DNA of 64,000 nucleotides from an uncultured Solirubrobacterales bacterium (lineage in GTDB: Bacteria > Actinomycetota > Thermoleophilia > Solirubrobacterales > 70-9): assembly GCA_903933815.1 (NCBI GenBank), contig CAIZLN010000035.1:2731-66730 (forward strand). Reading direction: 5' to 3'. This document shows positions 4,931 through 55,568 of the stretch, one piece after another. A model generated the notes under the pieces. That model ran no database searches and was not told the origin of the DNA. It saw only the letters and a program-made list of their open reading frames with translations. Each line of letters begins with the position of its first letter. Position 1 is the first letter of the stretch. The position numbers and the translations under genes are program-made.

Positions 4931-5770
4931 ATGGAACGTCTGCCCTACCTGAAGCTCGCCCTCGCCTCCATCGCCCTCGGAACCATCGTCTCAATTCTGA
5001 TGATGCAGTACGACTGGATGGGTGACGCTGCCTCGACGGCTGCGGGCCCGATCGACACGCTCATGGACGTGTCGATAATCATTTCGTCCTTCGTGTTCGC
5101 GATCGTCTGCGTTGCGCTCGGCTATGCGCTCGTCAAGTGGAGGGTCAAGCCGGGCGACGAGGGCGACGGCCTTCCCATTCACGGCAACACAAAGCTCGAG
5201 ATCGTCTGGACGCTTATTCCGACCGTGATCGTTCTCTTCCTGGCGGGCTACAGCTGGGTCGTCCTCAACGACATCGAGAAGGAAGATCCGAACGCACTGA
5301 CGGTCAACGTCTACTCGCAGCAGTTCGCCTGGACCTTCGGGTATCCGGAGAACGGCAACAAGTGGTCCGAGGGCGTGCTTCACGTTCCGGTAGACCGCCA
5401 GATCGACTTCAGGATGAACGCCCAGGACGTCATCCACTCCTTCTGGGTGCCCGAGTGGCGCATCAAGAAGGACAACGTTCCCGGTATCACGACAGATGCA
5501 TTGATCACGCCGGACAAGGTGGGCACCTACCAGCTGATCTGCACCGAACTCTGTGGCGCCGGCCACGCGACCATGCGGGCCCAGGTAGTCGTCCAGACTC
5601 AGGAAGAGTTTGACCGGTGGGTGAAGGGGCTTGAGTCAGAGGTGCCCGAGGATCTACTGCTTACCGCGGATCAGGCGATTGAGCTCGAGCGTCAGATTCA
5701 GGAAGCAGAACAGGGGATCGACGGCAGTGGCGTCGATGAAACTTCGGCTGAAAATGTGGATCAGTCATGA
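4931..5770 (+). CDS. ctaC: Cytochrome c oxidase subunit II (CuA-containing, no fused cytochrome c domain)
   Basis: Two N-terminal TM helices, QQFAWTFGY, DVIHSFWVPEW and an intact CuA motif ICTELCGAGHATM. No CxxCH. Confidence 0.92.
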   Translation: MERLPYLKLALASIALGTIVSILMMQYDWMGDAASTAAGPIDTLMDVSIIISSFVFAIVCVALGYALVKWRVKPGDEGDGLPIHGNTKLEIVWTLIPTVIVLFLAGYSWVVLNDIEKEDPNALTVNVYSQQFAWTFGYPENGNKWSEGVLHVPVDRQIDFRMNAQDVIHSFWVPEWRIKKDNVPGITTDALITPDKVGTYQLICTELCGAGHATMRAQVVVQTQEEFDRWVKGLESEVPEDLLLTADQAIELERQIQEAEQGIDGSGVDETSAENVDQS

Positions 5771-5784
5771 TGGAGGTCAGTTAG

Positions 5785-7695
5785 ATGGCAGTCGCACTCA
5801 GACAACCAGGCTGGTACCGCGGTGCACTCGGCGCCCTTCTTGGAGCCGCGTTCGGGTTCGGTCTCGTCGTCGCCCTCAGGGCCATCTCGGGTCTTGACAT
5901 CTTCCAGACCGAGCAGACGGGGTACCCGCATGTGGTCGTTCCGCTGATCACGACTCCCTTTGGCTTCCTCTTCGGTTTCGGTGCATTCGATTACTGGTTC
6001 CGCTGGGCGGCTGGCAAGCCGACCATCCCGGACGACCACGCCAACCACGGGGCTACCCGGTGGCAGGACTACTTCAAGTTCAACACCGACCACAAGGTCA
6101 TCGGCATCCAGTATGTGGTCACCACGCTGATCTTCTTCCTGATCGGCGGGGCTCTCGCCCTGCTGATCCGGGCCGAACTGGCTCAGCCCGGCACCCAGGT
6201 GGTGGATCCGAACGTTTACAACGGCCTTTTCTCCACCCATGCCGTAGTGATGATCTTCCTTTTCATCATTCCGATGTTCGCCGGGCTCGCCAACTACGTA
6301 CTGCCTCTGATGATCGGCGCTCCCGACATGGCATTCCCGCGGCTGAACGCACTCAGCTTCTGGATGCTGCCGATCGCAGGCATCATCTTCCTCAGCAGCT
6401 TCCTGGCCCCCGGTGGTGCATTCGATGCGGGCTGGACTGGCTACGCGCCACTTTCCACCGGAGCTCCGCTGGGTCAATCCTTCTTCAACATCGGTGTCCA
6501 GTTTGCAGGGGCTTCCTCAATTGCAACCGCCCTCAATTTCCTGGTCACGATCATCACCATGCGGGCACCCGGAATGAATCTCTGGCGGATGCCCCTGCTG
6601 GTCTGGGCCAACCTTGCCACCTCGCTCCTGGTGGTCGGGGCCACCCCGTTCGTGGCCGGCGCCCAGTTCATGGTGCTGTTCGACCGGGTGCTCGGCATGA
6701 ACTTCTTCCAGTTCCTGGAAGGAGGTGACGTCCTCTCCTACCAGCACATCTTCTGGTTCTACTCACATCCGGCGGTCTACATCATGATCCTGCCCGGCTT
6801 CGGAATAGTGTCGGAGATCATCTCCACTCACGCCAGGAAACCGGTATTCGGATACCGACTCATGGCGCTGGCCCTGATCGGGATCGTTGTTCTGAGCTAC
6901 TCGGTCTGGGCCCACCATATGTTCGTGGCAGGCATGTTTGACTGGCTGCGCGTGCCAATCATGATCACCACGCTGCTGATCGCGGTGCCGACTGGAATCA
7001 AGATCTTCTCCTGGCTGGGAACCCTTTTCTACGGCAAAATTCATACCTATTCGACAGCGATGCTTTTCTCGCTCGGCTTCATCGTGACCTTCACTGTCGG
7101 CGGGATCAGCGGGGTCATGCTCGGCATGGTGCCGCTTGACATCCACGTCTCCGATACCTACTTCATCGTCGCCCACATCCATTTCGTGCTTTTCGGTGGT
7201 TCGGTGTTCACGATCTTCGCCGGTATCTATCACTGGTTCCCGAAGATGACCGGACGCATGTACGACGAAAAGCTTGGCCGGGTTCACTTCTGGGGGACGA
7301 TGGTCGGCACCTGGGGAACTTTCATCCCGCAGCACTGGATCGGGCTTGACGGCATGCCCCGGCGGGTTGCCGACTACGCAAACATTTACGGTGACTGGAA
7401 CCTCGTCATCAGCGTTTTTGCCTTCATACTCGGGTTCGTCCAGCTGGTGTTCTTCTACAACATGATTGTCAGCTGGAGGTTTGGTCCGAAGGCAGGGAAC
7501 AACCCCTGGAGGGCCAACAGCATCGAGTGGCAGGTCAGTTCGCCGCCTCCGGTGTTCAACTTCGACGAGATCCCCAGAGTGGTGGGCGGGCCGTACGAGT
7601 TCGGTACCCCAGGTGCGCGTCACGCAATCATGGGTGGCGAAGACGAGCCCGAACTGCCGGGGCCAAAACCCACCAAAGTGGCTGAGCCAGCTTGA
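5785..7695 (+). CDS. ctaD: Cytochrome c oxidase subunit I (A2-type, with N-terminal 2-TM extension)
   Basis: All six canonical His ligands are present: STHAVVMIFLF, WFYSHPAVYIMILPGFG, VWAHHMFVAG, VAHIHFVLFGG. K-channel Lys is in PTGIKIF. YSHPAV is the A2-type motif. Confidence 0.95.
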   Translation: MAVALRQPGWYRGALGALLGAAFGFGLVVALRAISGLDIFQTEQTGYPHVVVPLITTPFGFLFGFGAFDYWFRWAAGKPTIPDDHANHGATRWQDYFKFNTDHKVIGIQYVVTTLIFFLIGGALALLIRAELAQPGTQVVDPNVYNGLFSTHAVVMIFLFIIPMFAGLANYVLPLMIGAPDMAFPRLNALSFWMLPIAGIIFLSSFLAPGGAFDAGWTGYAPLSTGAPLGQSFFNIGVQFAGASSIATALNFLVTIITMRAPGMNLWRMPLLVWANLATSLLVVGATPFVAGAQFMVLFDRVLGMNFFQFLEGGDVLSYQHIFWFYSHPAVYIMILPGFGIVSEIISTHARKPVFGYRLMALALIGIVVLSYSVWAHHMFVAGMFDWLRVPIMITTLLIAVPTGIKIFSWLGTLFYGKIHTYSTAMLFSLGFIVTFTVGGISGVMLGMVPLDIHVSDTYFIVAHIHFVLFGGSVFTIFAGIYHWFPKMTGRMYDEKLGRVHFWGTMVGTWGTFIPQHWIGLDGMPRRVADYANIYGDWNLVISVFAFILGFVQLVFFYNMIVSWRFGPKAGNNPWRANSIEWQVSSPPPVFNFDEIPRVVGGPYEFGTPGARHAIMGGEDEPELPGPKPTKVAEPA

Positions 7696-8600
7696 AGCCC
7701 CTGCTGATTTTTCTCAATGAAGTCGCCGGTGGTCGCAAGCTGCTCGCAGCCGCCACTGAAAGGGCCGAAGGAGCTTCATATGTTGTCGTGGTGGCACCTC
7801 AGAACCAGCCTGTGGCAGGTCAGCTGATTTTGCCCGAGGAGGCTCGCGAAGCGGCCCGGAGCAGGGTGGAGGTGACGCTTGCGGTGCTTGAAGAGTTCGG
7901 CGTCGAGGCTGTCGGCGAAGTCATGGACCCCGATTCGGATCTGGCACTCGGTGACGCAATCCGCAGCCATCGTCCAAGTGAGGTACTCCTCTCCTGCCTG
8001 TATGACACCCGGTTCGGACTCACCCGGAAAGATCTGGTTGATTGGGCCGAGCGTGAGTTCGAGCCTGGCACCACAATCACCCACATTCCCGTCCGGATCG
8101 AAGATGACTCCATCCGGCAGGACCTGACTCACACCCTGGTGGTTGCCAACCAGACTCTCGCCGACCCGGAGCTGGGCAAGCGCCTGATCGAGATAGCCGC
8201 TGAGAGGCCCCATCGCTTTACGATCATTGCGCCGGAAACCGAAGGTGTGTCCCCCGGCACCCTGACCCGGAATCTCGCTGGCCTCATGGCCCAGCTGTAC
8301 CGGGAGGGCATCGACGCCACCGGTCAGCCAATGAGTCCGGATCCGTTCTCCTCTGTCAGGAACGCGATCGCGCACTACCGGCTGGATGACATCCTTATCT
8401 CGACATTGCCCGGCGAAGAGTCCCGTTGGCTGGCAGGCGACCTTGTCGGCAAGGTTCGCGAAATCACTGACAAGCCTGTTTCCCATCACGAGTCCGGGGC
8501 GGGCCCGGGGGCCGTTGCCTCCGCAGTAGCCGAAGGTGGATCAAGCGAACAGGGCAGCACGGAAGCCGAAGAGCCAAACGTGGAAGCCAGCGAGGTATAG
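7692..8600 (+). CDS. Cytoplasmic protein with two tandem USP-like (adenine-nucleotide alpha-hydrolase-like) repeats, function unknown
   Basis: TTG start overlaps the ctaD stop (TTGA). The two halves align to each other: LLIFLNEV...YVVVVAPQN / TLVVANQT...FTIIAPET, and GEVMDPDSDLALGDAIRSHRPSEVLLS / GQPMSPDPFSSVRNAIAHYRLDDILIS. No TM segments. Confidence 0.6.
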   Translation: MKPLLIFLNEVAGGRKLLAAATERAEGASYVVVVAPQNQPVAGQLILPEEAREAARSRVEVTLAVLEEFGVEAVGEVMDPDSDLALGDAIRSHRPSEVLLSCLYDTRFGLTRKDLVDWAEREFEPGTTITHIPVRIEDDSIRQDLTHTLVVANQTLADPELGKRLIEIAAERPHRFTIIAPETEGVSPGTLTRNLAGLMAQLYREGIDATGQPMSPDPFSSVRNAIAHYRLDDILISTLPGEESRWLAGDLVGKVREITDKPVSHHESGAGPGAVASAVAEGGSSEQGSTEAEEPNVEASEV

Positions 8601-8605
8601 GGAAA

Positions 8606-9241
8606 ATGGAAAGCGCAAGTATCGCAGTCGGTCAGGGGGCAGCTGCAGACCATCACGACCACCATGGTCCGCCTGAGTTCCACCGCAGTGCGCGCATCGA
8701 CCAGACAGTTCTTGGGATCCTGCTTTTCATTCTCTCCGAGATCATGCTTTTCGCGGCTTTCTTTGCCGCCTACTTCTTTCTCCGCGTGGTCGTTTCACCC
8801 GATACGTGGCCCCCGGCGGGGATTGAACTACCAGTTCTCATCGCCGGCATCAACACCGTCGTTCTTGTTTCTTCGAGTTTCACGATCCATTACGCGCTCG
8901 AGGCGATCAAGCACAACAACCACCCTGGCCTGAAACTTGGCCTCGGTCTTACCTGGCTGCTCGGAGCCACCTTCCTCTTCATCCAGATAAACGAGTACAT
9001 CCACATCGGTTTCACCCCCCGTGACGGAGCCTTCGGTTCAATCTTCTTCAGCCTCACCGGCCTTCACGGTGCCCACGTCTTTGTTGGGCTGCTGCTCCTC
9101 ACCTTCGCCAATATCCGGGCCTGGAGGGGGCATTTCGGGCCGGAGCAGAAGAATCACCTTGGGGTAGAGGTTCCAGGCATCTACTGGCACTTCGTCGACA
9201 TCATGTGGATCGTAGTTTTCGTCACGATCTACATAATCTGA
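8606..9241 (+). CDS. ctaE: Cytochrome c oxidase subunit III
   Basis: FFSLTGLHGAHVFVGLLLL and YWHFVDIMWIVVF motifs. About 5 TM helices, 211 aa. Confidence 0.9.
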   Translation: MESASIAVGQGAAADHHDHHGPPEFHRSARIDQTVLGILLFILSEIMLFAAFFAAYFFLRVVVSPDTWPPAGIELPVLIAGINTVVLVSSSFTIHYALEAIKHNNHPGLKLGLGLTWLLGATFLFIQINEYIHIGFTPRDGAFGSIFFSLTGLHGAHVFVGLLLLTFANIRAWRGHFGPEQKNHLGVEVPGIYWHFVDIMWIVVFVTIYII

Positions 9242-9604: not shown

Positions 9605-9676
9605 GAGCAACAGCGCCGCTGCCTGCCCTGAGTAACGGCGCCGCTGCCTGCCCTGAGTAACGGCGCCGCTGCTAGG
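9605..9676. repeat. Tandem direct repeat, 25-bp unit x about 2.9
   Basis: gagcaacagcgccgctgcctgccct / gagtaacggcgccgctgcctgccct / gagtaacggcgccgctgctagg. It lies between convergent genes, and the last copy overlaps the ctaA stop codon. Copies 2 and 3 contain the palindrome CGGCGCCG. Confidence 0.85.
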
Positions 9677-10601
9677 CCTTGGCGGCGGAAAGGGTGATGT
9701 CGCGGCCCTTTATCTGCCCCGCTACCGCCACCGACCAAAGCACTGCCAGCCAGATCAGGGTCGCGGTGGCCACATGGAACCAGACCAGGATCGCCGGCAG
9801 CTCAAGTAGCCACTGGGTGATTCCGAGAGCTATCTGGAAGAGGATCAGGCCAAAGGTGACCTGCAGCGGGCGGATTGCCCGTCGATCCCCGCCCTTTCGC
9901 ATCAGGATGAAAACGACCGCCAGCACCGCCGCCGCGAAAACAACGGCCATGGCAGCGTGTCGCTGTGCGATCCACTCGAGTGTGCCCTCGCCCATGAAGT
10001 CAAAGCGCCGTACCAGCTCGGCGTCATGATCGCCAGGGTGGGGTCCGGAGGCTGTTGTGATCGTCCCCAGCAGTACCGTGAGCTGGCCAAACGGAATCAG
10101 TGCCCGGACAGCCCAGACGCCGAAGAAGTCGCCGGAGAAGCGGCGCTCGCCCGGCTCGTAGCGCGAGCACCAGAAAAGTGCGAACGCGGCATCCAGAAGG
10201 ATCATGGAGAGCAGGAAGTGTCCGATTACCAGTTCGGGGGGCAGGTGGTACTCGACCACGAAAGCACCGAGGACAGCCTGGCCGATGACACCGAGAGGAA
10301 GCAGCGCACCGAAAAGGGCGAGGTGCCAGCGATAGGGCCTGCGGAAAAATGCCAGCAACGAAGCCGCTATGACCGCCAACCCCACGAAGCCGGTCAGCAG
10401 GCGATTTCCGTACTCGATCCAGGCGTTGATCTGCGCTGGAGCAATGTAGCTGCCGTAGCATTTCGGCCAGTCGGGGCATCCCAGCCCGGAGGCGGTGAGG
10501 CGGACGGCGGAGCCGGTGAAGACGATGAGGACCAGGGCCACCAGAGCAATCAGGGTGACCTGTGCGTAGCGTTCCGGCGATATTTGGATGCGCTTCAGCA
10601 T
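9672..10601 (-). CDS. ctaA: Heme A synthase (COX15/CtaA family)
   Basis: GLGCPDWPKCYG motif; about 8 TM helices with conserved His residues (e.g. VIGHFLLS, QRHAAMAV); 309 aa. Confidence 0.9.
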   Translation of the reverse strand: MLKRIQISPERYAQVTLIALVALVLIVFTGSAVRLTASGLGCPDWPKCYGSYIAPAQINAWIEYGNRLLTGFVGLAVIAASLLAFFRRPYRWHLALFGALLPLGVIGQAVLGAFVVEYHLPPELVIGHFLLSMILLDAAFALFWCSRYEPGERRFSGDFFGVWAVRALIPFGQLTVLLGTITTASGPHPGDHDAELVRRFDFMGEGTLEWIAQRHAAMAVVFAAAVLAVVFILMRKGGDRRAIRPLQVTFGLILFQIALGITQWLLELPAILVWFHVATATLIWLAVLWSVAVAGQIKGRDITLSAAKA

Positions 10602-10658: not shown

Positions 10659-11408
10659 TTAGCCGCCGTTCTTGCCGCCTGCCTTGGCGTTGCCGGTGGA
10701 GGCCACAAGGAAGTCGATCAGTTGCTGGAGTTCCTGCGGAGGAAGGTTTGACCAGCGGTTTGGCATGACGGCATTCTCGTAACCGGGTGATTTGCTGGCA
10801 TCCGGCTCGACGATCGACTCCTCGATCTTCGCTCGGGTCATGCCCGGGATGACCTCATCCAGATTGGGGCCAAGGACGCCAGCTGACTCGGCAGCGGCGA
10901 GGATGTGACAACTTCCGCAACCCTGGTTTGCGTAGACCTGAGCTCCCGGGCCCTCGCCGGGCGCAATCGGCGGCCTGGCACCGGGGACGCCGGCATATCT
11001 GGCGACGTACCTGGCGACATCCTGAAGGTCGTTGCCGGTGACGATGTCTGCCGGCATGCTCACACCGGGGTAGCCGGAAGTCGAAGGACGAGGATGCTTG
11101 ATCTGATACTCGACGACACCTTTGACGGTGTCTTCATCCAATCCTGCGGCGCGAGCGGCGGCAAAAGCAGTGTCCAGATTCGGCCCCTGTACCCCTTGGC
11201 TGGCTGCCTGGGCCATGACATGGCAGGTGCCGCACTTGGCGTTGAACAGCTGCCGACCACGATCCTGAAATCCGCCCGTTATGGGGGCAGAGGTCTCAGC
11301 TCCGCAGCCTGCGGAGAGGCCGGTTAGCACCCCGAGGGAAACGACCAGAATGAGAGCTTTTGAAGTGGGGCGGAAGAGGTTCATGGGTTCAGGAACTTCA
11401 CTGGGCAT
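10659..11408 (-). CDS. Diheme class I cytochrome c, probable lipoprotein
   Basis: Two CxxCH motifs (CGTCHVM, CGSCHIL), each followed by a distal Met region. Signal peptide ends in LSAGC. ATG 11384 is an alternative start. Confidence 0.85.
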   Translation of the reverse strand: MPSEVPEPMNLFRPTSKALILVVSLGVLTGLSAGCGAETSAPITGGFQDRGRQLFNAKCGTCHVMAQAASQGVQGPNLDTAFAAARAAGLDEDTVKGVVEYQIKHPRPSTSGYPGVSMPADIVTGNDLQDVARYVARYAGVPGARPPIAPGEGPGAQVYANQGCGSCHILAAAESAGVLGPNLDEVIPGMTRAKIEESIVEPDASKSPGYENAVMPNRWSNLPPQELQQLIDFLVASTGNAKAGGKNGG

Positions 11409-11491: not shown

Positions 11492-11890
11492 ATGAGGGTC
11501 AGCGTGGGCATGTCGCAGGTAGTCCTCAGGGTCGGACCGGCACACACGCTGCGTGATGCCGCGTCAAGGATGGTAAGCCACGGGGTTGGTGCCGCGATCG
11601 TTGAAGACGATGGTTGGCCGGTACCTCGGATCATCACCGAGCGGGACATTCTCAAGGCTCTCGGCACCGGTCTTGACCCGGACTCTGAAAAAGTCGGCGA
11701 CCACATGAGCGAGAGCGTGATCTCGGCGTCACCTGAGTGGAGTATGGAGAGGGCCGCCATGGAAATGTCGCGCCGTAATATCCGGCACCTGGTGGTCTAC
11801 CGCGAAGGCGAGCTGGTGGGAGTGCTTTCGATGCGGGACATCATGCGCATCTGGACGAGCGACGGTGCTACTTCCGGAGGACCGCCCTGA
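11492..11890 (+). CDS. CBS domain pair protein
   Basis: Two CBS-like repeats (HGVGAAIVEDDG...IITERDILKAL; RNIRHLVVYREGELVGVLSMRDIM). GGAGAGG lies 6 nt upstream of ATG 11492. The ORF-track start at 11360 overlaps the divergent cytochrome c gene. Confidence 0.8.
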   Translation: MRVSVGMSQVVLRVGPAHTLRDAASRMVSHGVGAAIVEDDGWPVPRIITERDILKALGTGLDPDSEKVGDHMSESVISASPEWSMERAAMEMSRRNIRHLVVYREGELVGVLSMRDIMRIWTSDGATSGGPP

Positions 11891-11908
11891 GGCGGCATGC
11901 AAAAGCCT

Positions 11909-12211
11909 TCAGTTGTGGTCGGGAGCAGTAAAGCTCTCAACCGGAAGCTCTGAACGGACATCCGCCTGATCCCGGGGCAGACTGTAAAAAGAGCGACGAC
12001 CCTTCCTGATCAGGCTGCGGAGACCGAAGAAGGCGAAAATCGCTCCGAGAACGCCGTAGGACCAGACCGGGAAGATGAACCCGGTAGCAAAGGTGGCTGC
12101 GACCAGACCAAGGATGCCGAAGGCAAGCAGAACCGGGGCCCATGACGGGGCGGGCAGCTGGATGGACTCGGTCGGCGCGATCACATCAGGGGCCTGGTCT
12201 GTGGGGCTCAT
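11909..12211 (-). CDS. Hypothetical 2-TM membrane protein, last gene of the oxidase-like/ctaB operon
   Basis: 100-aa ORF with helices VLLAFGILGLVAATFATGFIF and YGVLGAIFAFFGL. It starts 5 nt after the stop of the preceding small ORF. Confidence 0.5.
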   Translation of the reverse strand: MSPTDQAPDVIAPTESIQLPAPSWAPVLLAFGILGLVAATFATGFIFPVWSYGVLGAIFAFFGLRSLIRKGRRSFYSLPRDQADVRSELPVESFTAPDHN

Positions 12212-12216
12212 GAGTC

Positions 12217-12330
12217 TCAGGCCGCCAGATAAAGCGTCGCGAAGAAGAACGTGAAGGCGAAAATCGCCGCTGCGCCGGTGCCAATGAGCATGCCGGAAGA
12301 AAGATTCGACTTTGTTTTCTTGCGATCCAT
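12217..12330 (-). CDS. Putative 37-aa single-TM peptide (MDRKKTKSNLSSGMLIGTGAAAIFAFTFFFATLYLAA)
   Basis: ATG lies 13 nt after the ctaB stop and fills the gap exactly up to the next gene. Basic N-terminus plus one TM resembles small oxidase subunits. No clear SD. Confidence 0.3.
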   Translation of the reverse strand: MDRKKTKSNLSSGMLIGTGAAAIFAFTFFFATLYLAA

Positions 12331-12343
12331 GGCTGGAGTTTTA

Positions 12344-13282
12344 TCAGGCGACGGCGTCGATGGCCATCGCCACGAAAAGCAGGGCCAGGTAGGCGAGTGA
12401 ATAGAGGTAGGTGCGGAGGTTCCGGGTCGGGTCTGGATCGCGATAAAGGACAACCGAAAGCCCAATGAAAATGCCGCCCAGTACCAGGGCACAGGCCAGG
12501 TAGAGCGTTCCGAGCAGCCCCGTGAAGAACGGCCCCAGAGTGACCACGAACATCACGACCGTGTAGATGAGGATCTGGCGGCGGGTCTCGGCGTCTCCCT
12601 TTACAACCGGGAGCATCGGCACCCCGGTTCGCTCGTAGTCCTCCTTGATCATCAGCGAAAGGGCCCAGAAGTGGGGCGGAGTCCAGAAGAAGATGATCAG
12701 GAAAGGCCACGCTGCCTCGAGAGTCAGGCTCCCTGTCGCGGCTGCCCAGCCGACAAGCGGAGGCACCGCGCCGGCACTGCCGCCGATCACGATGTTTTGA
12801 GGAGTGATTGGTTTTAGCCAGACCGTGTACAGGAACACGTAGCCGAGCAGGCCGACCATCGCGAGAGCGGCAGCCAGGAAGTTGACCGTCAGCCAGAGCT
12901 GCAGGAATGCGGCGGCCCCCAGCGTAATCCCGAAGATGAGTCCGTGGGTGGGTGAGATCCGGCCGTTGACCAGCGGTCGTGAGCTGGTCCTGGCCATGTG
13001 GGCATCGCGCTTGCGGTCGACGAAATGATTGATGGCACCGGCCCCTCCTGCCGCCAGGTAGCCGCCGAGCATGGTCCACAGGATTATCGAGAGCGGGGGA
13101 CCTGCCGGATCGGCGACAAACATCGTGGTCACCGTCGTCAACAGCAGAAGGCTGATGATCCGGGGCTTGGTGAGGGTGATGTAGTCGCGAACTACTGCAA
13201 ACACGTCTTGAAGAGGGGTAGGCTGGACGTTTTCGGCAGAGGTTCGAACATGCGCCTCGCGCACTTCGAGTCCGTCGATCAT
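12344..13282 (-). CDS. ctaB: Protoheme IX farnesyltransferase (heme O synthase)
   Basis: UbiA-family motifs GAINHFVDRKRDAHMARTSSRPL and WTPPHFWALS. 312 aa, multi-TM. Confidence 0.92.
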   Translation of the reverse strand: MIDGLEVREAHVRTSAENVQPTPLQDVFAVVRDYITLTKPRIISLLLLTTVTTMFVADPAGPPLSIILWTMLGGYLAAGGAGAINHFVDRKRDAHMARTSSRPLVNGRISPTHGLIFGITLGAAAFLQLWLTVNFLAAALAMVGLLGYVFLYTVWLKPITPQNIVIGGSAGAVPPLVGWAAATGSLTLEAAWPFLIIFFWTPPHFWALSLMIKEDYERTGVPMLPVVKGDAETRRQILIYTVVMFVVTLGPFFTGLLGTLYLACALVLGGIFIGLSVVLYRDPDPTRNLRTYLYSLAYLALLFVAMAIDAVA

Positions 13283-13286
13283 TCGC

Positions 13287-14981
13287 TCAGGCTACCGGCT
13301 GGCGCTCGCCGGCCGGAGCCGCCTCTTCGACTTCTCGTCGAACGAGGGAATCACGGATGTCCTGCATTGGCTGCGTACTTCGTACATCCGGCAGCACGTC
13401 GAAGTTATGGGGCTCCGGCGGCGACAGTGTCAGCCACTCGAGCGAACTTCCGCGCCACGGGTCTGGTGTGGAGGCCGCGCCCTCGGACCGGCTTCGGATC
13501 AGATTGCCAACAGCGAGGATGAGGCCGATGAACAGGATCAGAGTGCCGAACGAAGCCAGAAGGTTGAACCGGCTCAGGTTGTCACTGGCAAAGAACCGGT
13601 ACGAGTCGGTTACCTGCCCTTCGACGCCGGCTCCCAGTAGCGGCACCAGCGCGATGAGGGTGCCCGCGAACATCACCCAGAACGAGATCCTTGAGCGGTC
13701 TTCGTCAAGCATCCGGCCAGTCATCTTCGGGTACCAGTAGGAAACCGCCGCAAAACCTCCGAACAGCCCGAAACCGATGAGGGCGAAATGGGTAGCGGCC
13801 CAGGCATCGTACGTCTGCTGGAGCTGGGAGCCGACTGCGATCGTTGACTGGCTCACCTCAACGGCGAGGCCGACTGAAGCCAGAGAAAGGGCTCCCATTG
13901 CGAAGCGCAGCGGGCCACGCATGTGGAAATCGCTGTTTGAGACCGCGGAAACAAGGTTGTAGAAAATCAGGCCGAAGGGCACGATCAAAGCGATCGAGAG
14001 GAGCATTGCGTAGTACTTGAAGCCGACCGGAATTGGCGCGGTAATCATGTTCTGGGTCCAGGCCAGGGTTCCGATCACGGCTATTGCGGCCAGGGAACTG
14101 ATGATTACGCCCCGGCCGGGAAGCTGGCGACGGGTGAAGGTCTGGACTATCTCGGAGATCGCACCGAGCATGGTCACTGCGACGGCCATATAGGCACCGG
14201 TGAAGAAGATGTAGCTCAGGTGTTGCCAAAGGAGCGGCGCGCCGCCTACCCCGCCTGTGAAAAAGCCACCGTCGAGCTGGCGATCGATCATGAGCATCGT
14301 CAGCGCAGCGAGAAAGATCGGGGCGATGATCACGATCTGCCAGCAGACGATTGCCGCGGTCCAGACGAAGATCGGCGCCCGGCGCCAGGCCATACCGGGG
14401 GCCCTCATATTCCTGACGGTGACCAGCAGATCAATTGCCAGAAGGAGAATCCCCAGTGTCACCAGGCCGGTTGAAGCAATCCAGACGTCAACGCCATTAT
14501 TGGGCGTGAAGATGTGTTGCGAGAGTGGGGGGAAAGGGTTGATTCCCGCTTCAGGCGGGGTAAAGAGGAATGAAGCGTAGAGCAGGAAGCCACCGAGGAT
14601 GAACAGCCAGAGTCCCGTCTGGCCCAGTCTCGGCAGGGCGGTCCCGCGGCTTCCGATCTGGAGCGGCGTCACGTAGTAGAGAAGGCCGATGCAGAGAGGC
14701 AGAATGAAAAGGAAGATCGCGGTAGCTCCGTAAACCGAGAGCAGCCGGTCAAAGGTCACGGCGCTGAGGAAGAGGTTTTCCGGAACGGCGAGCTGCATGC
14801 GCACCAGAACGAGTTCGAGGGCCGCCAGGAAGGCTGAACCGAAAGCAGCTGAAATCAGGATCAGTGAGATGACCTTGTGGTCGGGACTTGTAGCGAGACG
14901 GGCCCAGCCGGGGCGGTCTACAGCATCACCGGTGACGATCTCCGGACGGGTGGGCGGCATGGTTCTGGGGAAGCTGCTCAT
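13287..14981 (-). CDS. Heme-copper oxidase subunit I paralogue lacking most metal ligands (non-canonical, function unknown)
   Basis: 564 aa, collinear with ctaD (SPDHKVI, PGMAWRRAPIFVW, YWYPKMTGRM, PWRGSSLEW). Ligand columns read SVYGATAIFLF (His->Tyr84), FFTGAYM (His->Thr261), AWTQNMI (HisHis->Gln310 Asn311) and AATHF (His->Ala396, His398 kept). K-channel Lys->Ile339. Confidence 0.85.
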   Translation of the reverse strand: MSSFPRTMPPTRPEIVTGDAVDRPGWARLATSPDHKVISLILISAAFGSAFLAALELVLVRMQLAVPENLFLSAVTFDRLLSVYGATAIFLFILPLCIGLLYYVTPLQIGSRGTALPRLGQTGLWLFILGGFLLYASFLFTPPEAGINPFPPLSQHIFTPNNGVDVWIASTGLVTLGILLLAIDLLVTVRNMRAPGMAWRRAPIFVWTAAIVCWQIVIIAPIFLAALTMLMIDRQLDGGFFTGGVGGAPLLWQHLSYIFFTGAYMAVAVTMLGAISEIVQTFTRRQLPGRGVIISSLAAIAVIGTLAWTQNMITAPIPVGFKYYAMLLSIALIVPFGLIFYNLVSAVSNSDFHMRGPLRFAMGALSLASVGLAVEVSQSTIAVGSQLQQTYDAWAATHFALIGFGLFGGFAAVSYWYPKMTGRMLDEDRSRISFWVMFAGTLIALVPLLGAGVEGQVTDSYRFFASDNLSRFNLLASFGTLILFIGLILAVGNLIRSRSEGAASTPDPWRGSSLEWLTLSPPEPHNFDVLPDVRSTQPMQDIRDSLVRREVEEAAPAGERQPVA

Positions 14982-15817
14982 GGCTGTGGTTCGACCTCTC
15001 CTGTGGGGGTCTCTTCAGCGGCTTCGCGGAGTTCTCTCTCCTGCGTGGCCACCACGGAGTCCTGCGCCTCCTGAATGTCAGCCTTCAACTGCTTGATGAA
15101 GGCTTCGTACTCGGCCGTCGATACGACTTTCACCTCGGATTCCATCGCGTCGTAGCCCTGACCGGAAAGCACAGAGGCGCGCCCGCTGAAGACACCCTCG
15201 CGGTCGGCCCTGAAGAAGATCCGGTTGGTCTTGCCTGGAACTGCCTGGGCCTTGCCGGTGAGGGAGGGAACATTCCACCCGTGGACGACATCGGCGGATA
15301 CGAGATCCAGGGCGACGGTGGTGTCGACCGGCACCACAAGCTGGTGATAGGAGAAGGCCGTGTTGGGGTAGTCGTAGCGCCAGAGCCACTGCTGGCCGGT
15401 CACCTTGATTTCCAGCCGGTCGTCGGCGTTCAGTCCCGCGACGTCACTGCTTCCGACCGGCACTTCCCGCGCCTGACTCGAAAAGACCGTTGCCGTAACA
15501 AAGAGGGCAAGGGCGACGACGCCCAGCCCGAGGCCGACACGCATCTGGCGCCCGCCGCCGGTGCCTTCGCTGTGAACATGCCGGTGACGTGGCCTGGCAG
15601 CGCGGAGGATCGCGAGGTTCACGAAGACAATCGCGATAACGCCTACCACGAAGATGATCAGGTGGAAGGTGTTGATCTTCTCGATGCCCGGCGACGCGGC
15701 GTCAGGGTTCAGCGAAAGGGCCGAAGCAGGCGTTGTGAAGAACGCCATCGCGACCGCTGCTGAGGCGATCGTCGAACAGAGGGTCAGGATTTTTCCGGGA
15801 CGGGACAGCACAGCCAC
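14978..15817 (-). CDS. Oxidase subunit II paralogue without CuA site (quinol-oxidase-like cupredoxin)
   Basis: Signal peptide + 2 TM + QQWLWRYDY + DVVHGWNVP. The CuA block reads GRASVLSGQGYDAM instead of CxExCGxxHxxM (Cys->Ala214, Glu->Val216, Cys->Ser218, His->Tyr222). ATGA overlap with the downstream gene. Confidence 0.8.
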   Translation of the reverse strand: MAVLSRPGKILTLCSTIASAAVAMAFFTTPASALSLNPDAASPGIEKINTFHLIIFVVGVIAIVFVNLAILRAARPRHRHVHSEGTGGGRQMRVGLGLGVVALALFVTATVFSSQAREVPVGSSDVAGLNADDRLEIKVTGQQWLWRYDYPNTAFSYHQLVVPVDTTVALDLVSADVVHGWNVPSLTGKAQAVPGKTNRIFFRADREGVFSGRASVLSGQGYDAMESEVKVVSTAEYEAFIKQLKADIQEAQDSVVATQERELREAAEETPTGEVEPQP

Positions 15818-15900
15818 GCCATTCTAATCGGATGGGCCGGACAGGCGACGCCGGGCCATCGTCAACGGTTCGCGCAGGTCGCTTAGTCTCCCTAGCGGTT

Positions 15901-16860
15901 ATGAGATGGCGGACCCCCTCCAAAGCAGCAAGGGACCGGAAGCGAGCCGCTCTGCGGGTCGCAGGTTTTGCTGCCCTGGCAGCGGCAGTCGTGGTGCCGC
16001 ATGTTCGCCGGCAACTACGTCTGCCGATGTCGGTGACGGTGGCCTCGACGGTTGCGGCGCCCGCCGCGATAACGATTCTCTGGCCTCGCACCAGGGCACG
16101 GGACCTTGCGCTGTTCGGGGCGCAGATGTGGGCCTTTGCGGTGACTCACGAACTCCCCTATGACGATCCGGAGCGCCTGCGCAAGCGTCTGAAAATCAGC
16201 TACCCAATCAAGGCCGACCGCTGGCTTGGGCGAGGTCGACTCCCCAATTCGATGCTTCAGCGGGCCCTTCACGACGGGCCATGGGGAGATTCCCTGACCA
16301 CCTTTGCCGCCTGGTCACACTGGATCTGGTTCATCCAGCCCAACTCCGCACTTATCTGGATCCTGCTCCGCAGGAGCGAGGCCTTTCCGCATTCGGCAAG
16401 GCAGATGGCCGCCGTCTTCGACATCGGCTGCGCGATCTACTTTCTGCTGCCGACGGCCCCTCCTTGGTGGGCTGCCGAGAACGGGCACACCGGGGACGAA
16501 CAGGTCAGGCGGGTGATGGTCGAGTTCGGCGAGCGGATCTGGGGCCCGGCCTGGACCCGCATCTTCGGCACTCTCGGCAGCAACCCGTGGGCTGCAATGC
16601 CGTCGCTCCATTTTGCGACAGCATTGATGGCCGCGATCCTGCTCAGCGAAAATGGCGGCCGGGTTCAGGGCACCCTGGGCTGGCTCTACGCCGGAGCGCT
16701 CGGCTTCTCACTCGTGTACCTGGGTGAGCACTACGTCACCGACCTCCTGGTCGGAGGTGCTGTCGTCCTGCTTGTCCGAAAGGGCGAACCCCTTGCCCGC
16801 CCGCTGGTCGGTCAGGTCAACTCAAAGCTGAGGCTGCTTGAAGCGATCGCGACTTCCTGA
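15901..16860 (+). CDS. PAP2-superfamily membrane protein (PAP2_3 / inositolphosphotransferase-like)
   Basis: Multi-TM, with AMPSLHFATAL and YLGEHYVTDLLVGG (the PSLH ... H..D motifs of the PAP2_3 group). ATG 15832 is possible but would leave only 14 nt to the divergent gene. Confidence 0.7.
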   Translation: MRWRTPSKAARDRKRAALRVAGFAALAAAVVVPHVRRQLRLPMSVTVASTVAAPAAITILWPRTRARDLALFGAQMWAFAVTHELPYDDPERLRKRLKISYPIKADRWLGRGRLPNSMLQRALHDGPWGDSLTTFAAWSHWIWFIQPNSALIWILLRRSEAFPHSARQMAAVFDIGCAIYFLLPTAPPWWAAENGHTGDEQVRRVMVEFGERIWGPAWTRIFGTLGSNPWAAMPSLHFATALMAAILLSENGGRVQGTLGWLYAGALGFSLVYLGEHYVTDLLVGGAVVLLVRKGEPLARPLVGQVNSKLRLLEAIATS

Positions 16861-16895
16861 GATGGTCACAGTGGGGTGTGCTCATTAGCCAGAAG

Positions 16896-18068
16896 ATGAA
16901 AGGAGGGGGTGAAGATCACCTGGCGGGTGAGGCTGACCTTCCGACCGGGGAAGCAGGAAACGGTGACCGGCCAGGTGCCGTTGCTGGTGACGGGCTGCCC
17001 ACCTTCACTGTTCGGGGAACGGTCCAGACGGTCCTGCTGATCACGGTGCTGGTCGTCGGCATTTACTTCTTCGTGCCCAAGCTGGTCGGAGTCGGAGATG
17101 CGATCGAGACACTGGGCGAAGCCGCTCCGATCTGGGTGGCAGTCGCCATCGGATTCGGCATTGCCTCTTTTGTGACCTACATCGCCCTTTTCCGGGCCGT
17201 GGTAGGCGGAGACGTTTTTCCGATCAGCTGGCGTGAGGCCTACGAGATCAACATGGCGGGTTTCGCGGCAACTCTTCTCTTCTCTGCGGGCGGTGCCGGC
17301 GGGGTGGTCCTTACCTACTGGGCCTTGCGACAGGGGGGCATGGAAAGGCGCGACGTCGGCACCCGCATGGTCGCGTTCATCGTGCTCCATTACCTCTTTT
17401 ATCCCCTTGCGATAGTGGTCTTCGGAATCCTCCTGAGGACCGGGGTGCTCAGCGGCAGTACGGTCGTGTCCCTGACCATCGTCCCCGCAGCGATCGCCGG
17501 AATCGTGATGATCGTCGGGCTGGCGATTGCTCTTGTCCCAGCCGACATCGAACGACGGATCCGGGAGTATTCGGACCGCCGCCCCTCGGCAAAGTACCTG
17601 GCGCGACTGGCGACGGTGCCAGCGACCCTTGCCGAAGGCGTTCGTGTGGCCTTGAGGCTGGTCGCCCATCCGACCCGGGCCGGCCTGGCCGTACTCGGGG
17701 CAGTTGGTTTCTGGGCGGCCAACATCGGCATCCTCTGGGCATCGTTCAAGGCGCTTGGAATCGCGGTGCCGTTCGGGGTCGTGGTGATGGGGTTCTTCAT
17801 CGGCATGGCTGCCAACCTGATCCCGTTCGTGCCCGCCGGAGTCGGCGCGGTTGACGCTGGAATGATCGGAACTTTCGTGCTGTTCGGCTTTCCGGAGGCG
17901 GAGGTATTTGCTGCGATCCTGATCTACCGACTGGTTGCCTTCTGGCTGCCGATTCCTCTCGGGGTAGTGGCTTTCTTCCAGCTTCGAGGAACCGTCAGAG
18001 GCTGGAAGACGGAGGGGCTGCCGATCGACCGCACACCACAGAGATCACTCATCAGACACGAGGCATGA
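16896..18068 (+). CDS. UPF0104 / lysyl-phosphatidylglycerol-synthase-TM-region-like (flippase-like) membrane protein
   Basis: About 8 TM helices. The N-terminal FFVPKLVGVGDAIETLGEAAPIWVAVAIG pattern and the GLAANLIPFVPAGVGAVDAG-like segment are typical of the family. Confidence 0.7.
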   Translation: MKGGGEDHLAGEADLPTGEAGNGDRPGAVAGDGLPTFTVRGTVQTVLLITVLVVGIYFFVPKLVGVGDAIETLGEAAPIWVAVAIGFGIASFVTYIALFRAVVGGDVFPISWREAYEINMAGFAATLLFSAGGAGGVVLTYWALRQGGMERRDVGTRMVAFIVLHYLFYPLAIVVFGILLRTGVLSGSTVVSLTIVPAAIAGIVMIVGLAIALVPADIERRIREYSDRRPSAKYLARLATVPATLAEGVRVALRLVAHPTRAGLAVLGAVGFWAANIGILWASFKALGIAVPFGVVVMGFFIGMAANLIPFVPAGVGAVDAGMIGTFVLFGFPEAEVFAAILIYRLVAFWLPIPLGVVAFFQLRGTVRGWKTEGLPIDRTPQRSLIRHEA

Positions 18069-54560: not shown

Positions 54561-55568
54561 GTGTTTTCGGAGATCCCCATGCCCCTGTTTGCGCCCCTTG
54601 CGGCGCTCAGTCCGACCGTGGTGGCCTTGCTCGAGCTGATCCCGCTGACCCTGGCGGTGATTCTTTACTGGAACCGGGCGATGAAGCTGTCGTGGGCCGG
54701 GCGCCCCGTCCCGGTCTGGCGACAGGTCTCTTTCGGCTTCGGACTCTTTCTCGCCTCGATTGTGCTTTTCAACCCGTTGGGCTACCTGGCCGAAGAGCTG
54801 GTTATTGCCCACATGATCGAGCACCTGATCATCGGGGATATAGCCAGTCTGTTTCTGGTCATGGGGCTGACCCGGTCGATCATCCAGCCGGTGCTTGCCG
54901 TTCCTTTCTTCGCCCGGCTCCAGTTCATCGCCAACCCGTTCGTCGCGATGCCTCTCTGGGCATTGAACCTCTACATCTGGCACATCCCGGTGCTCTACGA
55001 CTCCGCTTATGGAGGTGCTCTGGTTCACGGTCTTGAGCACGGCATGTTCCTCGGCTTCGGGATGCTGGTCTGGATGCCGGTTTTTGGTCCACTGCCCGTT
55101 CCTTCCTGGTTCGGGCCCGGTGCGAAGATCATCTATGTGGGCCTCGCCCGTTTCGCTGCGGCCATACTCGGCAACGTCCTGATGTGGAGTCAGGTGACGA
55201 TTTATCAAAACTATGCTGAAGGTCAGGCGAAGTGGGGACTGAGCGCCGTGGCCGACCAGAGCATTGCGGGCGTGATCATGATGATCGAGGGAACCTTCCT
55301 CCTGCTTGGTGTGCTCGCCTACACCTATTTCCAGCAAGCCAATCAGAGCATCCGCAAGCAGGAGCTGATGGATCTCGCCTACCTCGAGGGCTACAGCCTT
55401 GACGATGAGCGGGCCGAGCGTGCCGTCAGGTCCGGCCACGACGATCTCCTCGAGCAGAGGATCCGGGCTGGCGGAAAGCCCGGCATCGAGGTTTCGGAAA
55501 AGCCTGCTGGCGGCGCTGTGGCTGCACCGATCGCTGCGGATTCCGGGGCCGGAGCATCGCCGCCGTGA
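54561..55568 (+). CDS. ctaG: Cytochrome c oxidase assembly factor CtaG (Caa3_CtaG family membrane protein)
   Basis: 7-TM protein with AHMIEHLIIGD, LNLYIWHIPVLYD and HGLEHGMFL motifs typical of the family. Confidence 0.75.
   Translation: MFSEIPMPLFAPLAALSPTVVALLELIPLTLAVILYWNRAMKLSWAGRPVPVWRQVSFGFGLFLASIVLFNPLGYLAEELVIAHMIEHLIIGDIASLFLVMGLTRSIIQPVLAVPFFARLQFIANPFVAMPLWALNLYIWHIPVLYDSAYGGALVHGLEHGMFLGFGMLVWMPVFGPLPVPSWFGPGAKIIYVGLARFAAAILGNVLMWSQVTIYQNYAEGQAKWGLSAVADQSIAGVIMMIEGTFLLLGVLAYTYFQQANQSIRKQELMDLAYLEGYSLDDERAERAVRSGHDDLLEQRIRAGGKPGIEVSEKPAGGAVAAPIAADSGAGASPP

Follow-up and report, generated by a model that had tools for sequence, protein, structure and literature searches.

At the level of sequence, we show that an uncultured soil bacterium of the order Solirubrobacterales carries, in tandem with the heme O synthase gene ctaB, genes for a pair of oxidase-like subunits I and II, here named pCox1 and pCox2, which are predicted to be catalytically dead and appear to be maintained by selection. 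The genes lie in a 64,000-nucleotide stretch of the assembly GCA_903933815.1 (contig CAIZLN010000035.1, positions 2,731 to 66,730 of the forward strand), which is called the window in the following and to which all coordinates refer. The reading that we prefer for the pair, and that we put forward tentatively, as somewhat short of probable, is that of a dead oxidase-like membrane scaffold or partner, which would work with CtaB and CtaA in the handling of heme O/A, in its delivery or in oxidase biogenesis.

pCox1 is encoded at positions 13287 to 14981 by an uninterrupted open reading frame (ORF) of 564 codons. An earlier note on this DNA had described it as a full-length subunit I paralogue in which five of the six heme/CuB histidines and the K-channel lysine are replaced; both parts of this description hold, and the strand, which was left unstated, is the minus strand. 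The 564-residue protein is an A-type subunit I homologue with twelve transmembrane helices (12-TM), and its match to the COX1 profile PF00115 spans essentially the full length of the model (E=7e-74, positions 4-435 of 436). With the canonical CtaD of the window (5785-7695, plus strand) it shares 29% identity in BLASTP. The ligand columns were read in three ways, by BLASTP against this CtaD, in a MAFFT alignment with 114 homologues, and with a family-profile hidden Markov model (HMM) against the Corynebacterium glutamicum CtaD 7q21_D. The three alignments agree on every ligand column, which rules out that the histidines are hidden by misalignment.

The axial low-spin heme histidine of helix II is replaced by Tyr84 (codon 14730-14732, minus strand), which is invariant in all 114 core-clade homologues, and the CuB His-His pair of helix VII is replaced by Gln310-Asn311 (14049-14054, minus strand), again invariant in 114 of 114. 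Another CuB histidine has become Thr261, and the cross-link tyrosine Met265. At the codons for Ala396-Thr397-His398 (13788-13796, minus strand) the proximal heme a3 histidine is exchanged for Ala396 (112/114 full-length homologues in the MAFFT alignment), and the second low-spin histidine is retained as His398 (111/114). The K-channel lysine reads Ile339. In addition to the exchanges listed in the earlier note, the D-channel is dismantled (Asp to Gly, Asn to Gly/Tyr), and the Arg-Arg pair that binds the heme propionates is changed to Thr/Val-Asp459. The glycines of the helix-IX GGxTG motif pack against heme a3 in A-type oxidase structures. In pCox1 they are replaced within the codons for Leu372 to Glu375 (13857-13868, minus strand), at positions where the glycine frequency of canonical enzymes is 1.00 and where the family has leucine and glutamate, each at 1.00. 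Glu375, the position of which is a lysine in the divergent relatives P0122 and P0124, is a buried charge at the heme a3 packing position of real oxidases.

By its 12-TM COX1 fold and its PF00115 match pCox1 is a structural member of the heme-copper superfamily. Of the six histidines of a catalytic subunit I, however, it keeps H398 alone, the other columns being Y84, T261, Q310, N311 and A396. It also lacks the His-Tyr cross-link and the D- and K-channels of an A-family oxygen reductase, and none of its four active-site columns holds a histidine, which excludes the high-spin heme His and the His3(+Glu/Asp) site of an NO reductase. Judged by its ligand columns, pCox1 cannot build a heme a3-CuB centre, and this supports the earlier claim that a binuclear O2-reducing centre is impossible here. 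The protein misses the cut-off of the CtaD equivalog model TIGR02891 (344 vs 670.75 bits) and that of NF050116 (299 vs 880 bits), as do its relatives P0122, P0124, P0126 and P0160. A Pfam and NCBIfam search gave no dedicated named family for it: no NCBIfam model scored above its cut-off, and the generic PF00115 was the sole match. A family-specific C-terminal helix was considered and dropped, as the tail also aligns with the C. glutamicum CtaD.

pCox2 (14978-15817, minus strand, 279 aa) is a degenerate subunit II homologue (PF00116, E=1e-18), which comprises a signal/TM segment, another TM segment and a cupredoxin domain. It misses the cut-off of TIGR02866 (129 vs 147.7 bits) and, despite the match to the cupredoxin fold, it does not have the ligand set H...CxExCxxxHxxM of a CuA subunit II. 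The first cysteine is Ala/Ser, the glutamate Val/Thr, the second cysteine Ser and the histidine Tyr, the last two exchanges being present in 74/74 orthologues each. Retained are the first CuA histidine, the methionine and a QQWxWxYxYP motif. The gene that follows pCox1, ctaB (12344-13282, minus strand, 312 aa, PF01040), encodes a heme O synthase which lies above both equivalog cut-offs, with 362 bits for NF003349 (cut-off 246) and 333 bits for TIGR01473 (cut-off 210).

The junctions of the three genes are tight, and the sequence itself bears out the earlier observations on them. The stop codon of pCox2 and the start codon of pCox1 overlap in ATGA (14978-14981, minus strand), a layout expected for translational coupling, and a 4-nt spacer, GCGA (13283-13286, minus strand), separates the pCox1 stop codon TGA from the ATG of ctaB. 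Apparently, this is the layout of a single co-transcribed operon pCox2-pCox1-ctaB, of which ctaB would be the last gene. A scan of 11800-16100 for promoters and terminators gave nothing convincing, so that it lends no independent support to the operon boundaries. At the other end, the longest ORFs of pCox2 and of the divergent neighbour PAP2_3 start only 14 nt apart, with GTG at 15817 (minus) and ATG at 15832 (plus). Either the promoters of these two genes overlap coding sequence, or one of the true starts sits further in.

The pair is widespread within its order. In the best 120 of the hundreds of relatives returned by a protein search, identity to pCox1 is 58-100%; 114 of them were aligned in full length. 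Where these 120 have a named source, it is Solirubrobacterales, Thermoleophilia or unclassified Actinomycetota metagenome-assembled genomes (MAGs), apart from one labelled Acidobacteriota. A genome scan with one genome per species gave at least 80 loci from the same groups (Solirubrobacterales, Thermoleophilia or unclassified Actinomycetota), with one exception. Where the DNA of these loci extends far enough, pCox2 immediately precedes pCox1 on the same strand in 77 of 77, and ctaB immediately follows pCox1 in 73 of 74. The wider order is fixed as well and reads trxB, LPG_synthase_TM, PAP2_3 / pCox2-pCox1-ctaB / CBS / cytochrome c-ctaA, followed at some distance by ctaE-unknown-ctaD-ctaC. Intact ctaC-ctaD-ctaE genes always share the neighbourhood of the pair in the related loci, too.

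The ratio of nonsynonymous to synonymous substitutions (dN/dS) was estimated by the Nei-Gojobori method against four genomes at 83-90% identity and amounts to 0.055-0.106 for pCox1, 0.096-0.178 for pCox2, 0.064-0.107 for ctaB and 0.028-0.038 for ctaD, values that are approximate and if anything too high, with dS near saturation at about 1. Across 43 orthologues 147 of the 564 pCox1 columns are invariant, and the residues that stand in place of the canonical ones (Y84, Q310, N311, L372, E375, R290 and Y264) are invariant or nearly so in the family. Several of the checks proposed in the earlier note were carried out in this way: the orthologues show the same substitutions and the same synteny with ctaB, they are free of truncations, and dN/dS resembles that of ctaB and is far from 1, in agreement with the claim that the scaffold is maintained. 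Plain decay of a redundant oxidase copy could explain why catalytic residues are lost in both subunits and why pCox1 changes at roughly three times the rate of CtaD (mean distance 0.39 vs 0.13), a pace close to those of ctaB and ctaA. Because dN/dS is low, the 114 homologues are full length, the replacement residues are invariant and the synteny extends over the order, pCox1 is not a pseudogene, and we consider decay refuted, its remaining probability being practically nil. Judged by these patterns the pCox1/pCox2 pair is maintained by selection.

What is maintained can be seen from the structure and the distribution of constraint. An AlphaFold2 model of pCox1, built with a 52-sequence alignment, has twelve long helices (predicted local distance difference test, pLDDT, 75.9; predicted template modelling score, pTM, 0.81). 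In Foldseek actinobacterial CtaD subunits rank first, with a TM-score of 0.83 to 7qhm_D, so that the 12-TM oxidase scaffold postulated before is reproduced. Among 43 genomes the most constrained cytoplasmic parts are loops 2-3 (0.95), 4-5 (0.94) and 10-11 (0.88). Highly constrained are also helix X (0.90), the proximal C-terminus (0.89) and the periplasmic loops 5-6 and 7-8 (0.88-0.89), which in real oxidases face subunit II. The conservation of the three cytoplasmic loops, of the proximal C-terminus and of helix X nearly equals that of CtaD. Compared with CtaD, the largest loss of constraint is found in loop 9-10, the region of the Mg site, in loop 6-7 and in helices VI, IX and XII. This pattern fits kept protein-protein surfaces and a kept partner subunit better than kept chemistry.

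To delineate the family we searched 1.8 billion cluster representatives and read the ligand columns of the matches. Divergent members are P0122 (44% identical), P0124 (39%) and P0366, and the named sources of P0124 and of the P0122 cluster are Solirubrobacterales. In the loci of P0122 and P0124 (L081 and L087) the synteny PAP2/LPG / COX2-COX1-ctaB is kept. A rare protein, P0126, is 36% identical to pCox1 and has the ligand pattern HHLLRYG, in which the first low-spin and the first CuB histidine are kept and the rest lost. Its locus (L086, 3378-8051) reads COX2-COX1-ctaA-ctaB, with the COX1 gene being degenerate, and stands beside a caa3-type COX2-cytochrome c gene. P0126 may represent an intermediate stage, or it may have degenerated independently. 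The idea that it links the family to other taxa was rejected: apart from a single protein with 89% identity, the sequences closest to it are ordinary Solirubrobacteraceae/Thermoleophilaceae CtaDs (~40%). As sampled by this search, the pCox1 family is confined to Solirubrobacterales-like genomes.

A separate family of degenerate COX1 proteins was found in Acidimicrobiia (P0160, P0164, P0262 and about 120 relatives). Here both low-spin histidines are kept in 121/121 sequences, while the CuB histidine is replaced by Tyr, the His-His pair by Ser-Glu/Gln and the heme a3 histidine by Gln, Thr, Ala or Val. The loci L084 (7035-11904) and L089 (6119-10169) contain a divergent ctaA and, next to it, ctaB-COX1-COX3 with the degenerate COX1, followed by a gene for a cupredoxin-like or unknown protein of 330-345 aa; an intact caa3 operon directly follows this cluster in both. 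The two families have in common an A-type COX1 paralogue without a binuclear centre, which stands beside ctaB/ctaA and adjoins an intact oxidase operon. They differ in that the Acidimicrobiia proteins keep the low-spin histidines and are followed by COX3 and the cupredoxin-like or unknown protein, with no preceding COX2. In sequence, the Acidimicrobiia family is no closer to pCox1 than ordinary CtaDs are. A crude neighbour-joining tree groups the two families, and it also clusters several ligand-deficient representatives, a topology for which long-branch attraction is likely responsible. Literature searches for degenerate COX1 families of Solirubrobacterales or Acidimicrobiia found nothing.

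Two further observations were made in the course of this search, from which the locus L083 (P0204) was left out, as its contig has many split genes, probably caused by long-read indels. A COX1-COX3 fusion, P0254 (852 aa; L090, 5909-9934), follows genes that resemble those of Alternative Complex III (NrfD, ActD). Its ligand columns read HHFQHQH, without the cross-link tyrosine, one CuB histidine and the heme a3 histidine, which could be a misalignment or another unusual heme-copper oxidase (HCO). Moreover, about one third of the full-length best-scoring COX1 representatives (P0121-P0270) have incomplete ligand sets with many patterns. Judged by these columns, ligand-deficient subunit I homologues would seem to be frequent among metagenomic proteins, where they are annotated as ordinary oxidase subunits.

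The earlier note knew of no described family with such a ligand pattern, which needs to be corrected. Our literature searches for a ligand-less HCO family gave one precedent, that of Acetobacter. In Degli Esposti et al. 2023 (PMC10715153, citing Matsutani et al. 2014, BBA 1837:1810), a COX1-like gene without metal-cofactor ligands is described as kept adjoining ctaB, with a speculated role in stabilising CtaB, although in another lineage and situation. The adjacent genes are ctaB APT_01774 and ctaD APT_01775 (PMC5158111). The Acetobacter gene shares with pCox1 that a ligand-less COX1 homologue stands immediately beside the heme O synthase gene. The differences are substantial. Acetobacter is an alphaproteobacterium without cytochrome c oxidase, whereas the host of pCox1 has an intact ctaC-ctaD-ctaE set 6 kb away. 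In addition, pCox1 comes with a degenerate subunit II, occurs across an actinobacterial order, is under strong purifying selection and has invariant replacement residues. The Acetobacter ctaD, by comparison, was reportedly regarded by Matsutani and colleagues in 2014 as a relic with accumulated mutations, in an organism that relies on a quinol oxidase after the loss of its cytochrome c oxidase. Common descent of the two genes is unlikely; we expect an independent origin because the best matches of the pCox1 family are actinobacterial CtaDs. The pCox pair is hence not wholly unprecedented. It is new in being order-wide, in including subunit II, in coexisting with a functional enzyme and in having a parallel in Acidimicrobiia.

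Compared with known enzymes, the pair is most similar to the actinobacterial CtaD/CtaC proteins (C. glutamicum 7q21/7qhm, Mycobacterium smegmatis 6adq), with a best match of 476 bits to the family profile. CtaD and pCox1 share the 12-TM fold, the motifs DHK, MRAPGM, YW(F/Y)PKMTGR and PW..S.EW..SPP..HNF and the C-terminal tail, and the canonical subunit II and pCox2 share the cupredoxin domain with its QQWxWxYxYP motif. Unlike CtaD/CtaC, the pair is without five of the six histidines, the cross-link tyrosine, the D- and K-channels, the Arg pair and the CuA cysteines. In gNOR a single active-site histidine is replaced, and a 2024 survey called this family the first to do so (Murali et al. 2024, PMC11214002). 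Like the pCox pair, gNOR and other recently defined HCO families have altered active sites, and the subunit II of gNOR is also without CuA, but gNOR changes one active-site histidine where pCox1 changes nearly all. A functional analogy may be drawn to Surf1/Shy1, a membrane protein whose gene is linked to those for oxidase and heme A and for which buffering of heme A or its delivery to subunit I has been proposed (PMC9145763). Surf1 has an unrelated fold, and its heme binding was shown experimentally, whereas pCox1 is known from sequence. A review of assembly factors by Hederstedt lists no protein of the pCox1 kind, and it describes the path by which heme A enters subunit I as unknown (PMC9145763).

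How could such a pair be useful to the cell? In the scaffold/partner reading, pCox1 and pCox2 would still form an oxidase-like membrane heterodimer without oxygen chemistry, which would act as a scaffold or partner in the production and delivery of heme O and heme A. It might, for example, dock or stabilise CtaB (and CtaA). Alternatively, it might transiently accept farnesylated heme and so mimic the apo-CtaD/CtaC assembly intermediate. Our main argument for a link to heme O/A synthesis is that the ctaB/ctaA linkage of degenerate COX1 genes recurs in three lineages. The partnership with CtaB suggested earlier receives circumstantial support from the adjacency in L081, L087 and L086 and in the Acidimicrobiia loci L084 and L089; its functional meaning stays disputable, as discussed below. 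Within the core clade one heme could, moreover, still be bound in the former low-spin site by Tyr84 and His398. Heme-trafficking proteins such as HasA typically use a His/Tyr ligand pair. Tyr84 is conserved to 100% in this clade, His398 to 95-97% and Arg61, at the position of the arginine that binds the heme a formyl group, to 99%. The Acidimicrobiia family, in which both low-spin histidines are kept in every sequence, also speaks for a retained heme. Since these residues are compatible with one heme in the low-spin site, calling the scaffold non-redox was an overstatement. One may go further and speculate that ligand-less or single-heme subunit I copies are recurrent, so far unrecognised oxidase-biogenesis factors, a kind of apo-oxidase mimic that partners the heme O/A synthases so as to organise or buffer the delivery of farnesylated heme. 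Such factors would have arisen independently in Solirubrobacterales, Acidimicrobiia and Acetobacter, with the core-clade pCox1 holding one heme via Tyr84/His398. We regard this broader proposal as doubtful.

Several points weigh against these ideas. The adjacency to ctaB may be inherited from an ancestral ctaC-ctaD-ctaB operon instead of reflecting a functional link, and ctaB beside oxidase genes is indeed a common ancestral arrangement (PMC4013037). Rate covariation, calculated with 13 syntenic genes in 28 genomes, is weak for pCox1-ctaB (r = 0.11) and pCox2-ctaB (r = 0.26); the value for pCox1-pCox2 is r = 0.12. All named genomes are MAGs. Heme binding in particular is called into question by the replaced propionate Arg pair, one position of which is Asp459, and by the helix-IX exchanges of Gly for Leu/Glu, which should fill the heme a3 pocket. 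Furthermore, Tyr84 and His398 are both lost in P0122, P0124 and P0366, where the position of Tyr84 is taken by Phe, Leu or Met. The members in L081 and L087, 39-44% identical, have no histidine ligand left, and their arrangement with ctaB is still present. Judging from these members, a heme in the old low-spin site is not universally needed by the pCox1 family.

With decay set aside, three other explanations have to be weighed against the scaffold/partner reading. The pair could be a structural, non-catalytic module of the real aa3 oxidase or of a respiratory supercomplex, with the place next to ctaB being left over from a ctaCD-ctaB operon. Pseudoenzymes often pair with their active paralogues. 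The shared neighbourhood with the intact ctaCDE genes, the conserved fold and subunit I/II-type loops of pCox1 and the ancestral character of ctaB linkage all agree with this possibility, as does the fact that the closest solved relatives of pCox1 are the CtaDs of obligate actinobacterial III2IV2 supercomplexes. We nonetheless think it unlikely: pCox1 and ctaD show a negative rate covariation (r = -0.41, in what is a weak test), the Solirubrobacterales operon comes without a pseudo-subunit III, and the tight coupling to ctaB persists over order-level divergence.

An even lower probability is assigned to the two explanations in which the emptied cofactor sites have a use of their own. pCox1 might be a neofunctionalised transporter or ion channel, in which an ion or small molecule is bound or conducted through the former cavities. 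These cavities would be lined by conserved polar or charged residues (Tyr84, Thr261, Tyr264, Arg290, Gln310, Asn311, Glu375, Asp392 and Asp459). Such family-specific residues occupy positions where real oxidases have Gly, His, Phe, Tyr or Arg, and the change of Glu375 to Lys in divergent members keeps a charge. A hydrogen-bond network that structurally replaces the cofactors would, however, explain them equally well. Several are changed in the most divergent members, both canonical proton pathways are dismantled, and no transporter-like neighbours or motifs were seen, which makes a channel improbable. To the same degree improbable is a single-heme redox or sensor protein that would use His398/Tyr84 to transfer electrons or to sense heme or the redox state, independently of CtaB. 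For this idea speak the conservation of Y84, H398 and R61 in the core clade and the bis-His ligation that the Acidimicrobiia analogue keeps in 121/121 sequences. The propionate-binding arginines are lost, though, pCox2 no longer has CuA, the site at which electrons enter, and divergent members without both ligands retain the operon.

The intact oxidase operon of the window, ctaC-ctaD-unknown ORF-ctaE (4931-9241, plus strand), lies about 6 kb from pCox1. It consists of ctaC (4931-5770), ctaD (5785-7695), an ORF for 302 aa (7692-8600) that overlaps the ctaD stop codon, and ctaE (8606-9241). All ligands are present in this CtaD. Its YSHPAVY motif, from which the D-channel glutamate is absent, we take to mark an A2-type enzyme of the Pereira classification. 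The protein has 636 residues, of which about 100 form an N-terminal extension (5785-6090) before the DHK motif, with two extra hydrophobic helices by eye. The 302-aa ORF has no Pfam or NCBIfam match. Its position is kept in most related loci that reach that far (54-88% identity, dN/dS 0.04-0.09). Its product may be a hitherto uncharacterised protein that is specific to the lineage and associated with the oxidase. On the minus strand a gene for a di-heme cytochrome c (10659-11408), with an apparent lipoprotein signal (…LSAGCGA…, by eye), is followed after a 58-nt gap by the heme A synthase gene ctaA (9672-10601), a pairing that is kept in most related loci. Divergent from pCox2 are the genes for the membrane proteins PAP2_3 (15832-16860, plus strand) and, downstream of it, LPG_synthase_TM (16878-18068, plus strand). 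The two flank pCox2 in the same way in nearly all related loci, including those of the 39-44% identical members. An assembly factor gene of the Caa3_CtaG type (PF09678, E=3e-42; 54561-55568, plus strand) is located 40 kb from the oxidase genes, beside that of a ferritin-like protein.

In summary, the histidines that bind heme and copper in oxidase subunit I have been treated as essentially inviolable, and here Solirubrobacterales keep both core subunits after losing nearly all of them. That such a degenerate pair is retained would surprise oxidase specialists. A practical consequence concerns annotation: proteins of the pCox1 type are annotated as 'cytochrome c oxidase subunit I' or 'cbb3-type ... 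subunit I', and because degenerate COX1 proteins carry such labels, counts of terminal oxidases are inflated in metagenomic surveys of Solirubrobacterales and Acidimicrobiia. For the biology of the family, the finding suggests that selection can retain the 12-helix oxidase scaffold for a non-catalytic use, and it bears on an open question of oxidase biogenesis. The transfer of heme O/A into subunit I is the least understood step of this process, and the linkage of degenerate COX1 genes to ctaB/ctaA, repeated in three unrelated lineages, points at exactly this step, the passage of heme O/A from its synthases into subunit I.

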